Shown here in pieces: positions 671-11,798 of a stretch of 64,000 bases of DNA; the stretch's first letter is position 1; the number at the start of each line of letters is the position of its first letter. A program made the translations under genes and the position numbers. This DNA comes from a virus. Taxonomy: Duplodnaviria > Caudoviricetes. The notes under the pieces were generated by a model. That model ran no database searches and was not told where the DNA came from. It saw nothing but the letters and a program-made list of their open reading frames with translations. The stretch lies in IMG/VR virus record IMGVR_UViG_3300021256_000087, positions 1-64,000 of that record; one strand, written 5' to 3'.

Positions 671-1272
671 TGATTACGTTATATATTGGAAAGTCTGGAG
701 CCGGTAAAGACACCTTTCTCAAGAAGCAAGTAGCATTAGGGGTTACTCCTATAGTGTCTTACACCACGCGTCCAATGCGTGAAGGTGAAGTAGATGGAGT
801 TGATTATCATTTTGTTTCTTTGGTAAGATTCCTTGAAATGCTTGATCATGGGCAATTAGCTGAATGGAGAAAATATGATACACTAATCAATAATTTACCG
901 GCCACATGGTATTATGGTTCTCCGTGGCTTAATAAATATAAAGATTATGTAGGAGTTGTTACTCCAGAAGGTGCTAAAAATTATATTAAACTATATGGCG
1001 CAGAGAATATCGAAATAGTCTATGTCATAGCAGATGATGACATCAGAGAAGAGAGGGCCAGAATACGAGAATCACTTAGTATCGAAGAGTGGAATGCTAC
1101 AGTTAAGCCTGAGTGGGACAGACGACTTAAAGCAGACGCGGAAGATTTTTCTGATGAAGTTATTCAAGATTTGGCCAACGCTCTTGGACATAAGATTACC
1201 GTAATGTTTAATAATAGTTACCCTGACAGAGTAACATTTTCATGGATCTATCCACTTGACAAAATAACATGA
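664..1272 (+). CDS. gmk: Guanylate kinase-like protein
   Basis: P-loop GKSGAGKDT and the GK motif SYTTRPMREGEVDGVDYHFVS. Confidence 0.85.
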   Translation: MVMITLYIGKSGAGKDTFLKKQVALGVTPIVSYTTRPMREGEVDGVDYHFVSLVRFLEMLDHGQLAEWRKYDTLINNLPATWYYGSPWLNKYKDYVGVVTPEGAKNYIKLYGAENIEIVYVIADDDIREERARIRESLSIEEWNATVKPEWDRRLKADAEDFSDEVIQDLANALGHKITVMFNNSYPDRVTFSWIYPLDKIT

Positions 1273-1284
1273 ATATGTTAATGT
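1256..1284 (+). promoter_or_regulatory. SigmaA-type promoter for the RNA cluster
   Basis: TTGACA (1256-1261), 17-bp spacer, TG-n-TAATGT (1279-1284). Confidence 0.7.
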
Positions 1285-1291
1285 ATTATTA

Positions 1292-1373
1292 GGTCGTTCG
1301 GGCGACCATAAATAGACTTCTAAGCCCGAAGCGTTTACGATTTTGCTGATCTCAGGAAAATCGTAAGGCAAGT
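1292..1373 (+). ncRNA. Pistol self-cleaving ribozyme
   Basis: P1 GGTCG/CGACC; loop TTCGGG pseudoknots with CCCGAA (1325-1330); TAAATAG linker; P2 ACTT/AAGT; TAAG; GCG (1331-1333); P3 1335-1344/1357-1366; predicted cut G1368/C1369. Confidence 0.85.
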
Positions 1374-1518
1374 ACGGTGGAACAGAGGTCGCGAACTCTG
1401 ATGGAATAGTAGTATGGGATTGCTACTATTCGTCCTAAAGATAAGACGATCTAATGTGATAATCCTATCGTCTTATCGGTGGTAGTAGAAGGCCTAAAGA
1501 TGTCAACGGCTACCACCT
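1374..1518 (+). ncRNA. Structured RNA between the pistol cut site and tRNA-Gln
   Basis: Stems 1383-1400, 1404-1431 (11 bp), 1440-1477 (11 bp), 1478-1517 (8 bp). Confidence 0.5.
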
Positions 1519-1523
1519 TATTT

Positions 1524-1594
1524 GGCGGATTAGTTCATTAGTAGAACAGGAGCCTTTGAAGCTCATGAGAGAGGGGCAGAACCTCTATCCGCTG
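1524..1594 (+). tRNA. tRNA-Gln(UUG) with non-canonical T and D loops
   Basis: GGCGGAT/ATCCGCT acceptor, GTTC/GAAC D stem, CT-TTG-AA loop, T arm AGAGG-GGCAGAA-CCTCT. Confidence 0.85.
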
Positions 1595-1656
1595 CTACTT
1601 TTACTGCTGAGGGTAAATCAGCGGCGCAAAGTGGGATGGGCGATATCATCCCGTAT

Positions 1657-1834
1657 ATCTCGGTGGCGGAATGGGTAAACGTAAATACAAATTCATGGGG
1701 ATCCAGCAGTTAACGGTTGGCTGTCATGCGAGGGTTGAGACTACGTGCCGAAAAAGCGGGAGCAGGAGGAGTCCATTAAACTCAAACCATGAAGAAAAAG
1801 ACAGTATGTAAGGTTCGAATCCTTACCCGAGATA
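1657..1834 (+). ncRNA. tRNA-scaffolded RNA with a 125-nt structured insert replacing the anticodon/variable arm
   Basis: ATCTCGG/CCGAGAT acceptor, Leu-type D arm GCG-GAATGGGTAAA-CGT, T arm GTAAGG-TTCGAAT-CCTTAC; insert 1683-1807. Confidence 0.7.
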
Positions 1835-2085
1835 TTGACCGAAACGGGCGAGAGAAGAGTAAGTCGTGTAAAGTCACGTTTCTTCGAAACAGAGACAGGA
1901 ACAAAGACGAATTCGCCTCCTGCAGTAGGTCATATGGAAGATGACTTCCCGAGAAGCACACTCGTAAAAATGCTTTATATGCCGGTGAAGTGGGATCCGC
2001 GATGGGAAGCGGTGAACATGGAGGTTTACAAAGGTGGCAACTTACCATAACCCATCTTAGCTTCGGCGAAAGAAAGTTGCTTAAT
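1835..2085 (+). ncRNA. Candidate multi-stem ncRNA with possible loop-loop pairing
   Basis: Nested stems TGACC/GGTCA, GGCGA/TCGCC, TCGT/ACGA, GTTTC/GAAAC; GCAACTT/AAGTTGC; loop GATGGG (2001-2006) complementary to CCCATC (2051-2056). Confidence 0.45.
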
Positions 2086-2169
2086 GGGAATATAGCTTAG
2101 TGGTAAAGCAGCGGTGCGCACCCTCAGAACAACGAGAGCAAGACTCAGGTTCGATTCCTGATGTTCCCT
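2086..2169 (+). ncRNA. tRNA-like RNA lacking a canonical anticodon arm
   Basis: GGGAATA/TGTTCCC acceptor, GCTT-AGTGGTA-AAGC D arm, TCAGG-TTCGATT-CCTGA T arm; middle is two mini-hairpins. Confidence 0.65.
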
Positions 2170-2200
2170 TTTAACAAAATAAAGAAAGGGGTGATTAAGA

Positions 2201-2647
2201 GTGGATTATATGAAGCCGATGGTATTAGAGGTCGAAGATCTTGCTGAGGGAATCTATGCAGCAAGCGGAGAAAACATTGAAGAGAATAATGATAGAGAAG
2301 ATCAGTGCTGGACTATTGATATCACAAAGGATCAAGTTATTGCACACGAAGGTATTGCGAAGTTTAGAATCAAGGCGACACATCCTAACGCTGTTCATAT
2401 CTCTAGAGCCACAACGGTAGTTATTACTTTTAATCAGATAATAACCAGTGCAAGATTTGAAGGATTCGATGCGTCAATTTCCGGTGCTACGGTTACTCTT
2501 GTAAGACAGTCTCATGGTAATGCTTATAATAGTCTTGATGAATATAATAGTTTACTTGAAGTAACTTGTAAGGATCCGGACGCTTTAACCACAGTATCAT
2601 ATACCATTGATTGTACGAAGGATTACAATGTACAAGGTGGTATCTAA
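2201..2647 (+). CDS. Hypothetical protein with a leader-like N-terminus (YMKP...LAEGIYAASG)
   Basis: 148-aa ORF with RBS AAGAAAGGGG; beta-rich C-terminal part with Cys residues. Confidence 0.75.
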   Translation: MDYMKPMVLEVEDLAEGIYAASGENIEENNDREDQCWTIDITKDQVIAHEGIAKFRIKATHPNAVHISRATTVVITFNQIITSARFEGFDASISGATVTLVRQSHGNAYNSLDEYNSLLEVTCKDPDALTTVSYTIDCTKDYNVQGGI

Positions 2648-2721
2648 CGCGGAGTGGACTGGAGCGGAGCCAGCACGGTCTCATAAGCCGTACAACGCGG
2701 GTTCGAATCCCGCCTCCGCTA
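2648..2721 (+). tRNA. tRNA-Met(CAU), initiator-like
   Basis: C1:U72 mismatch, ACGGT-CTCATAA-GCCGT arm, GCGGG-TTCGAAT-CCCGC T arm; fMet/Met/Ile2 identity uncertain. Confidence 0.85.
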
Positions 2722-2854
2722 TTTAGGAAGCGTTTGTTGTGAAAGGCAACTTGTTGGCGCACAGCAATAAGTGCGTATAGTGTGAGATAGAGTTAGAGTT
2801 CTCAGGGGCAGCGCTGGAATCGCTCATGCATTACCACCCATAAAAACTCACAAT

Positions 2855-2938
2855 GCTACCATGTCGGAATGGGTAGACGACTCGGACTTAAAATCCGATG
2901 TGAGAAATCACGTGCGAGTTCAAGTCTCGCTGGTAGCA
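2855..2938 (+). tRNA. tRNA-Leu(UAA)
   Basis: GCTACCA/TGGTAGC acceptor, TCGGA-CTTAAAA-TCCGA arm, long variable arm, GCGAG-TTCAAGT-CTCGC T arm. Confidence 0.95.
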
Positions 2939-3057
2939 TTTGATATTAGATTGCAACTAATATCAACGGATTATTACAGAGATAATCACAATGAGTCTAC
3001 TAGTTAAAATTCTTGATGCGCACAAGATACTCGTGATGAAGGGTATAATAATTCGTC

Positions 3058-3129
3058 AGGGATATGGTGTAATGGATAGCACGCTCTCGGCTGAAGAGGG
3101 AAGTTTAGGTTCGATTCCTAATGTTCCAA
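3058..3129 (+). tRNA. tRNA-Gln(CUG)-like with G32/G33
   Basis: GTGT/GCAC D stem, CTCTC-GGCTGAA-GAGGG arm, TTAGG-TTCGATT-CCTAA T arm, A1:A72 mismatch. Confidence 0.6.
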
Positions 3130-3304
3130 GAGGTTTGGTAGCACCAAACTGATCTGAGTACGAGCAGGAAAGCTCAGTGAGAATAACAAAGCCTGTGATA
3201 GTTGGCAGCGGCCGGCGGCTGCAGCGTAATGAGACCGGATTTAGTATCTTCTATCATGGGAGACTGCACAAATTAACATTATAACAAACTTATTGAGGTA
3301 ATAC

Positions 3305-5905: not shown

Positions 5906-5934
5906 TTGACAAAATAATATATATAGAATAATAT
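5906..5934 (+). promoter_or_regulatory. SigmaA-type promoter of the DNA polymerase operon
   Basis: TTGACA-17 bp-TAATAT; shares ACTTGACAAAATAA with the promoter at 1256. Confidence 0.7.
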
Positions 5935-8900: not shown

Positions 8901-9151
8901 TACTAACTCTTTATCAAGTCTGCGATGGTACGGCGAAAAAGATTAAGATAGATAAACACTATACTGTTAAAGAGGGTGATATTATCCACGTACTCGAATA
9001 TTCTGAAGCTCCTAAGTGGCGTAAATGCGGAGAGGATCCAGTCACTCATAAGCCCAAGTTTGAAAAGACTGGAGAGACAGAACGTATTATCAGTAAGATT
9101 GCTCCTGTAACTAGACATAAAAGAGTACTTGACATAGCAACAGAAATGTGA
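5981..9151 (+). CDS. dnaE: DNA polymerase III alpha subunit-like (family C) phage polymerase
   Basis: N-terminal PHP domain (HRHT, AANDSHY), RGGRGSCAS, PDIDY, HPCAHLL, LKDDFL; 1056 aa, no intein visible. Confidence 0.92.
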   Translation: MKEYFNYHRHTHISNIFTIDSTTKNAQYVQRSLELGHTALSTCEHGSFGDIFECRTLCDNNNLRCVPVSEFYIVKDSDPELKDKRNYHIIIAPRTNEARKKCNYISSEANMRGYYYKPRIDVQHLLELDPQDVYITTSCVGGILRDEDGINDIFLPLYKHFGDNLFLEVQNHLDPKQIDINKKVLELRDKYGLKIIAANDSHYIDEEGRLQRDELLRGKGMVYTEETGFILDYPDYNTMFERFEKQEVLSESRIEEAIANTMILAQSEEIQLDHSIKMPTIDPDLSPLQRVNKLKKLVNHRFTQIVKDEHIEGEEFEKYKEGIRYEMKIIEDTNEEIHTADYFLLNTKLVDLAVNKYGGVLTRGGRGSCASFYINKICGMTQLDRFKINLPIFPDRFASTARLLENRALPDIDYNVESQEPFVKAARELLGEHGCYPMYSAGNMQLKEAFKNLCRSKGIPFETSNQISSEIDKYRNDPKWKDLIAEAEKYMGVIISASVHPCAHLLSNEDIRYEYGVLRFGDSLCVLITSAEADEYKVLKDDFLIVEVWHLIAETFKMAGVPILPAMKLLDNIKDDDRIWKLLADGMTCTLNQVDSQNGTQQEMKYGVKSFEDGALIAAAIRPSFDSWRTKFLNHEEYTTGSKQLDEVLVSTGGYILFQENLMEYFQWLGITPAESIGLIKKISKKKIKPQDFAKLENRIRKVWIEKTGSEDMFNETWGMIQSCISYGFCSAHAAATSLDMCYGAYLKVNYPLEYYTVCFNTYANNTDKTARLTNELNYFGINLQGIKFRYSTKDYSFDKNTNTIYKGVASLPFLSDKVSQELYGLRDNQYEDFIDVLEDVATSTSADSRQIKILISLDYFSEFGEINNLLDIYDKWSEWRKKKTIKKESAAEILFTSDIVSKYADKITAKQYSGVKMIPMLKDWVKIRQDIPTTLFDKMDYEAECLGYVTTTDPTIKSDYWYVVTVEGFSKNILTLYQVCDGTAKKIKIDKHYTVKEGDIIHVLEYSEAPKWRKCGEDPVTHKPKFEKTGETERIISKIAPVTRHKRVLDIATEM

Positions 9152-9157
9152 TATAGT
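9129..9157 (+). promoter_or_regulatory. SigmaA-type promoter with extended -10
   Basis: TTGACA-17 bp-TATAGT preceded by TG. Confidence 0.75.
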
Positions 9158-11769: not shown

Positions 11770-11798
11770 TTGACATAGTACCAATTATATGATATTAT
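11770..11798 (+). promoter_or_regulatory. SigmaA-type promoter with extended -10
   Basis: TTGACA-17 bp-TATTAT preceded by TG. Confidence 0.7.

Follow-up and report, generated by a model that had tools for sequence, protein, structure and literature searches.

The pistol ribozymes form a class (RF02679) that has been described by Harris et al. (2015, PMC4604425) and is represented by env25 (5K7C/5KTJ; PMC6154101). The chemistry of these ribozymes has been studied in depth. Pistols have been located near phage genes with their function left open (PMC4604425, PMC6765202), and in a 2019 review the biological role of the class is listed as unknown (PMC6765202). The minimal HDV-like theta ribozymes (Kienbeck et al. 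2024, PMC10879173), which are small and reside in phage tRNA clusters like the pistol analyzed here, have been proposed to process tRNA precursors without the host nucleases (PMC10879173). They belong to another ribozyme class: theta lies directly 3′ of tRNAs, cuts at its own 5′ edge and frees the tRNA 3′ trailer, whereas the cut of a pistol falls close to its 3′ edge, so that the RNA downstream is released with a 5′-hydroxyl (5′-OH). In RiboJ-type engineered insulators, which are synthetic and based on a hammerhead-type satellite ribozyme, the ribozyme follows the transcription start, strips the leader and leaves a defined 5′-OH end; the locus described in this work would be a natural case of such an arrangement, using a pistol.

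In this work we have analyzed a phage pistol ribozyme placed at the predicted transcription start (+1) of its own promoter, in a tRNA cluster and before an unclassified conserved RNA, an arrangement for which no parallel was found in the RF02679 literature consulted. Full-text literature searches returned no paper linking pistols to tRNA genes; an earlier mention is possible, Weinberg 2015 lying outside their coverage.

The window, by which we mean the whole stretch of DNA analyzed (64,000 nt), is the first 64 kb of an IMG/VR viral record of 83,476 bp from an uncultured phage, linear and with an estimated completeness of 66%. Megablast of positions 1000-3200 against GenBank phages gave no match, and no close relative at the DNA level was found there. 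Pattern scans of IMG/VR returned three more contigs carrying the locus, designated L080/L121 (69 kb), L119 (123 kb, 97% complete) and L120 (16 kb), with metagenome twins for L080/L121 and L119. The genes around the ribozyme encode a guanylate/dNMP-kinase-like protein (ORF 664-1272), DNA polymerase III alpha, an anaerobic ribonucleotide reductase and an amidase-SH3 lysin. We infer that the host is an anaerobic Gram-positive bacterium; comparison of the lysin gave no host identification.

A tRNA-Asn gene (at 128) lies upstream of the pistol and five tRNA or tRNA-like genes lie downstream of it in the window. G001, a nearly complete relative, has all of its seven tRNAs within a stretch of 3 kb, where four precede the ribozyme and three follow; the layout is similar in G002 and G003, and two to four tRNAs stand directly upstream of the ribozyme in G001 and G003. 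The pistol lies inside the single tRNA/ncRNA gene cluster of the phage. The first-pass annotation was right to assign it to such a cluster and wrong to place it at the head, given the tRNAs on both sides, with tRNA-Asn upstream in the window and further tRNAs preceding it in the relatives.

The P-loop kinase encoded by ORF 664-1272 was considered as an RNA 5′-kinase and set aside; it matches guanylate/dNMP kinase families and is non-adjacent in L119 and L120. An RNA ligase of 309 amino acids (PF09414, 78.5 bits) is encoded by the phage outside the window (G000 79760-80689, minus strand), and the homologous gene of G001 (L287:1648-3660) is split by an intein carrying a LAGLIDADG endonuclease. 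No RtcB gene was found in four phage records, G000 and G001 included. Further downstream in the window, positions 1980-2084 match the drum RNA family (RF02958) with 41.1 bits, slightly below the cut-off of 43, and lie directly 5′ of a tRNA-like gene without an anticodon arm at 2086-2169; the latter scores 49.4 bits with the Rfam tRNA model, has a 25-nt insertion in place of the normal anticodon arm and is reported by ARAGORN with an undefined anticodon.

The pistol itself was recovered by the Rfam search, RF02679 matching positions 1292-1362 of the plus strand with 37.8 bits, over the gathering score of 34.5 (E-value of 0.0025 for the whole window and all families, 7.7e-7 for the single family and the 83-kb record); the relatives score 36.9-43.6 bits. 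The score is low because the model penalises a long P3: cmscan shortens this helix, giving the range 1292-1362 with three non-canonical pairs, while the alignment made by hand extends to 1373 and has none. A base-by-base check of the latter gave canonical pairs at 26 of 26 positions over P1, the pseudoknot, P2 and P3, and all of the catalytic A, G and GCG positions are present, so that the set of pistol elements which the first-pass annotation had read between 1292 and 1373 was borne out in full.

The P1 hairpin (1292-1307; GGUCG 1292-1296 with CGACC 1303-1307) is invariant in the relatives and its loop UUCGGG (1297-1302) forms the 5′ strand of the pseudoknot, with six of six Watson-Crick pairs to CCCGAA (1325-1330), its perfect complement. 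The linker AUAAAUAG (1308-1315) agrees with the Rfam consensus AUAAAuA. It is followed by the 5′ strand of P2, ACUU (1316-1319), all four nucleotides of which pair with AAGU (1370-1373), and by the internal loop CUAAG (1320-1324), in which A1323 and G1324 are by consensus alignment the equivalents of A32 and G33 of env25. Behind the 3′ strand of the pseudoknot comes GCG (1331-1333), where G1331 corresponds to the general base G40 of env25 and is followed by the equivalents of C41 and G42; the catalytic roles of A32/G33 and G40-C41-G42 are taken from PMC6154101. The linker adenosines and the UAAG and GCG elements are aligned to upper-case positions of the Rfam consensus. P3 (1334-1367) is a stem of 11 bp (1334-1344 with 1357-1367) with the consensus U-G closing pair U1334-G1367 and a CUG/CAG mini-hairpin at its apex. 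The two-nt junction G-C (1368-1369) holds the predicted scissile bond G1368/C1369, by homology to G53-U54 of env25, in agreement with the position chosen by the first-pass annotation, and the 3′ strand of P2 (1370-1373) would remain on the 3′ cleavage product.

The architecture and the conserved nucleotides are thus those of the RF02679 class, with which the element shares the 6-bp loop-to-junction pseudoknot, the AAA-containing linker, the U-G-closed P3 and the junction of two nucleotides, and its phage setting agrees with that reported for the class. It differs in having a G-C junction instead of the commonest G-U and in the length of P3 (34 nt). The same helices are formed by different sequences in 79-95 other phage pistols, and a search of 1200-2100 that allowed E-values up to 10 gave no match to the HDV family (theta). 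By sequence and predicted structure the element is a canonical pistol-class ribozyme. The GC junction, which the first-pass annotation had singled out as unusual, is a natural variant and no defect. The GU junction has been reported as modestly conserved, its length being strictly kept while its identity varies (PMC4604425), and among the 49 phage pistols in which the junction could be resolved it reads GU in 28, GC in eight, GA in five, AU in four, GG in two and UC and UA in one each. Half of the eight GC cases fall outside the present lineage, and GC occurs in four independent pistol lineages.

Outside the tip of P3 the ribozyme is identical in the alignment at 70 of 70 positions in the three other contigs, all substitutions among the relatives being confined to the apical part of P3 (1345-1356). 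The surroundings are far less alike: the adjoining downstream RNA is 69-82% identical as against the invariant ribozyme, the corresponding values being 40-55% for the tRNA-like element behind it and, in L119 and L120, 50% for the flank upstream. Such invariance is, as far as aligned sequences can tell, a sign of a constrained, working element under strong purifying selection. Because the ribozyme is invariant within the lineage it offers no covariation there. Only three distinct sequences of the lineage exist, and the linkage of the pistol to the RNA downstream could therefore be plain co-inheritance.

In front of the ribozyme a putative sigma-A-type promoter was recognized on the plus strand. 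It consists of a -35 hexamer TTGACA (1256-1261), invariant in four contigs, and, after a spacer of 17 nt, an extended -10 element TATG-T-TAATGT (1274-1284), that is a TRTG-n motif (TATG-n, 1274-1278) plus the hexamer. The AATATGTTA block of the extended -10 is invariant in all contigs. L119 and L120 have TAGTAT as the -10 hexamer at the same distance, and their spacer has diverged with its 17 nt retained; the -35 and AATATGTTA are kept there although the sequence upstream is a tRNA array in place of the kinase gene. Seven nucleotides separate the end of the promoter from P1. The combined promoter score at this fixed distance is 10-11, a value reached by at most 0.6% of random positions. A generic promoter scan did not list 1256-1284 because the -10 hexamer TAATGT agrees with TATAAT at only three of six positions. 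The promoter is likely real, judging from the invariant -35, the extended -10 and the diverged spacer of equal length, and the TTGACA-17-TAATGT promoter of the first-pass annotation can be retained. Its acceptance puts the predicted transcription start at about 1291-1292, at the first base of the ribozyme or next to it.

The idea that a promoter abuts every pistol was rejected, as 30 other phage pistols score at background and only the present lineage scores high. Elsewhere in the window, promoters of the type that stands before the ribozyme (TTGACA-N16-18-TANNNT) were seen on the plus strand at 5906-5934, 9129-9157 and 11770-11798, two of them with an extended -10 of the TRTG type; that at 5906 precedes the DNA polymerase III alpha gene and those at 9129 and 11770 precede other plus-strand genes.

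Downstream of the predicted cleavage site, positions 1369-1523 of the plus strand correspond to a conserved structured RNA of 155 nt, the predicted 3′ cleavage product, which folds in prediction into a three-way domain and two long hairpins. RNAalifold applied to the three distinct sequences gave 41 pairs, and at 11 of these both bases have changed in a compensatory way; the z-score of the single-sequence minimum free energy is -4.47. This RNA is present downstream of the pistol in all contigs of the lineage. Judged by this pattern of substitutions and by its predicted fold, the stretch is no spacer but a new structured RNA. Its single-stranded parts that remain invariant are the 5′ tail CAAGUACGGU, the loop GUCGCGAA, UCGUCCUAAAG and GUCAACGG; complements to the invariant 5′ tail show no excess elsewhere in the window. 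No Rfam family corresponded to the RNA even at E up to 10. A covariance model (R1) was run on about 1 Mb of phage loci, and patterns were scanned over IMG/VR, JGI metagenomes and GTDB genomes; no copies were found outside the three contigs already named and their metagenome twins, other pattern matches being attributable to chance.

The 155-nt RNA is followed on the plus strand by a tRNA-like element with the anticodon UUG (1524-1594), which scores 44 bits with the Rfam tRNA model and has a predicted RNase P site at 1523/1524. ARAGORN rejects it, its D loop (AUUAGUA) is devoid of G18G19 and its T loop (GGCAGAA) gives a non-canonical elbow; for these reasons it has been classed as tRNA-like and not as a tRNA. 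Comparison of the window with L080 shows 10 compensatory pairs in the cloverleaf. The odd D and T loops are kept in L080 while the stems covary. A UUG-like element follows the 155-nt RNA in the window and in L080, and a different tRNA (CAU) takes its place in L119 and L120. Since the promoter, the pistol and the 155-nt RNA are kept while the next tRNA is swapped, the conserved unit ends before a tRNA-shaped, predicted RNase P signal.

The adjacency of pistols and tRNAs has been surveyed in a sample of 95 unique phage pistols from 86 loci. A tRNA on the same strand within 1 kb downstream was found for 12 pistols in eight loci, and a tRNA on the opposite strand for none of the 95. Random placement within the same loci gave 2.6 +/- 1.4 pistols with a downstream tRNA and reached 12 in none of 2000 trials; several of the 12 cases are related or multi-copy, so that they represent roughly five independent lineages. 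Same-strand tRNAs are enriched downstream of phage pistols. A rule that pistols always stand next to tRNAs was rejected, because about one in eight has a tRNA nearby and some seven in eight do not. Some phage pistols precede protein genes. In one further locus (L028) a sequence resembling a T arm and 3′ acceptor (GGTTCGATCCCTGG...) was noted 50 nt upstream of the pistol; ARAGORN calls no tRNA there, and the sequence may represent a fragment of a tRNA or what is left of an attachment site.

The clearest of these cases is found in G004, an AT-rich and unrelated fragment of 52 kb, in which six pistols are interleaved with ten tRNAs within 5 kb (positions 2225-7303 of L285, i.e. of G004:C1:11000-22000). 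Three of them have the predicted cut 7-10 nt before tRNA-Tyr, tRNA-Asp and tRNA-Pro, and the other three are followed by TTTACA-N17/18-TATAAT promoters within about 15 nt. In one unit the order is a promoter, a leader of about 95 nt, the pistol, 7 nt and tRNA-Tyr, a leader-removing layout like that of the present locus. The array (L281/L285) resembles the window in that its pistols share the strand of the tRNAs and are interleaved with them, and in the order of promoter, pistol and downstream RNA. It differs in the number of pistols, in the close abutment of half of them on tRNAs and the position of the other half before promoters, and in the absence of the 155-nt RNA, for which the R1 model gave no match in G004. 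Four pistol copies of the array have a U-U mismatch in the pseudoknot. The array supports the wider suggestion of the first-pass annotation, that pistols would work 5′ of phage tRNA precursors, and it fits a punctuation role too.

From the locus itself we consider it moderately probable that the pistol, which begins at the predicted +1 of the promoter in front of it, sets the 5′-OH end of the 155-nt RNA while RNase P sets the 3′ end. The transcription start, the cleavage, the cut by RNase P and any purpose served by the 5′-OH end are what we infer here from sequence. The sigma-A-type promoter would start transcription at about 1291-1292, on the first base of P1 or beside it, and P1, the 6-bp pseudoknot, P2 and P3 would form as the nascent RNA emerges. 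G1331, the G40 equivalent, would activate the 2′-OH of G1368 and the chain would break between G1368 and C1369. A ribozyme fragment of 77 nt with a 5′-triphosphate and a 2′,3′-cyclic phosphate end would be discarded, and the 155-nt RNA (1369-1523) would be left with a 5′-hydroxyl, its 3′ end resulting from RNase P cleavage just before the tRNA-like element (1524). The pistol would thus be a nuclease-independent maker of 5′ ends and an insulator, since RNA reading through from the gene or the tRNAs upstream would be broken between the same two nucleotides, which would give an identical 5′ end and keep the unit insulated. In Bacillus a 5′-OH end is a substrate of RNase J1, as is known from work on the glmS ribozyme, and the 5′-OH could accordingly destabilise the 155-nt RNA rather than protect it.

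Read-through RNA may even be the main substrate, as no terminator was found between ORF 664-1272 and the ribozyme. The pistol would then act mainly as a 3′-end maker or stop mark for RNA coming from the kinase-like gene or from the upstream tRNAs, the upstream RNA keeping the compact ribozyme fold and a 2′,3′-cyclic phosphate and being insulated from what follows. The three pistols of the G004 array that are followed closely by promoters are likewise placed at the end of a unit, and a role of bacterial self-cleaving ribozymes in processing polycistronic transcripts has been suggested, as noted in the 2019 review (PMC6765202). As the main function this is nevertheless unlikely, because the upstream neighbour varies, being the kinase gene in the window and L080 and tRNA-Leu in L119 and L120, while the 155-nt RNA is constant, and because the conserved promoter abuts P1, so that many transcripts would carry no upstream RNA at all. 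Such a function is compatible with the making of the 5′ end of the 155-nt RNA, and both could hold.

The first-pass annotation had suggested 5′-side processing of tRNA transcripts; on that reading the pistol would be a tRNA 5′-processing device, the counterpart to theta ribozymes, which have been described only at tRNA 3′ trailers (PMC10879173). The position within the only tRNA cluster of these phages, the enrichment of same-strand tRNAs downstream of phage pistols and the short distance (7-10 nt) to tRNA-Tyr, tRNA-Asp and tRNA-Pro in the G004 array all agree with it, and the array lends the wider idea support. At the present locus it is not supported as worded, since the RNA released would be the 155-nt RNA and not a tRNA: 155 nt separate the predicted cut from the tRNA-like element, and a separately conserved RNA occupies this gap. 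Furthermore, the P2 nucleotides always stay on the product, which therefore has no mature tRNA 5′ end; the tRNA-like element would still need RNase P and the pistol would not replace tRNA 5′ processing here. With only about one in eight phage pistols having a tRNA within 1 kb, we regard a tRNA-processing device as a distinctly improbable account of this pistol. That the element is an inactive relic or a chance look-alike without a processing role is hardly credible, for the Rfam score just 3 bits over the cut-off comes from the penalty on the long P3 while the full alignment holds no mispair, the GC found instead of GU occurs in four independent lineages of a class in which junction identity varies (PMC4604425), and the identity of 70 of 70 positions outside the P3 tip is kept while the neighbouring RNAs differ by 18-60%.

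The preferred explanation, in which the pistol makes the 5′ end of the 155-nt RNA, gives the new RNA family ends that would come from two ribozymes, pistol and RNase P. The order of promoter, +1 ribozyme, structured RNA and tRNA-like RNase P signal has been kept in three diverged phages and so forms a readable context. By its sequence the element adds a new member to the pistol class, and its context is both conserved and informative. Only tentatively do we extend this to pistols at large as a phage system which handles tRNA/ncRNA polycistrons independently of host RNases, a 5′-side counterpart of theta that makes deliberate 5′-OH ends; the G004 array supports such general punctuation in RNA operons. 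If this is true, cuts ahead of tRNAs and structured RNAs would remove triphosphate leaders and separate the units, the 5′-OH could alter RNA stability or feed a phage RNA ligase pathway, and the cargo of the present locus would be a new class of 155-nt RNA with an activity dependent on its 5′-OH end. The locus points to a job for a ribozyme class of unassigned natural role, and together with the G004 array it turns that role into a concrete question: do pistols define the 5′ ends of phage ncRNAs and tRNA precursors?
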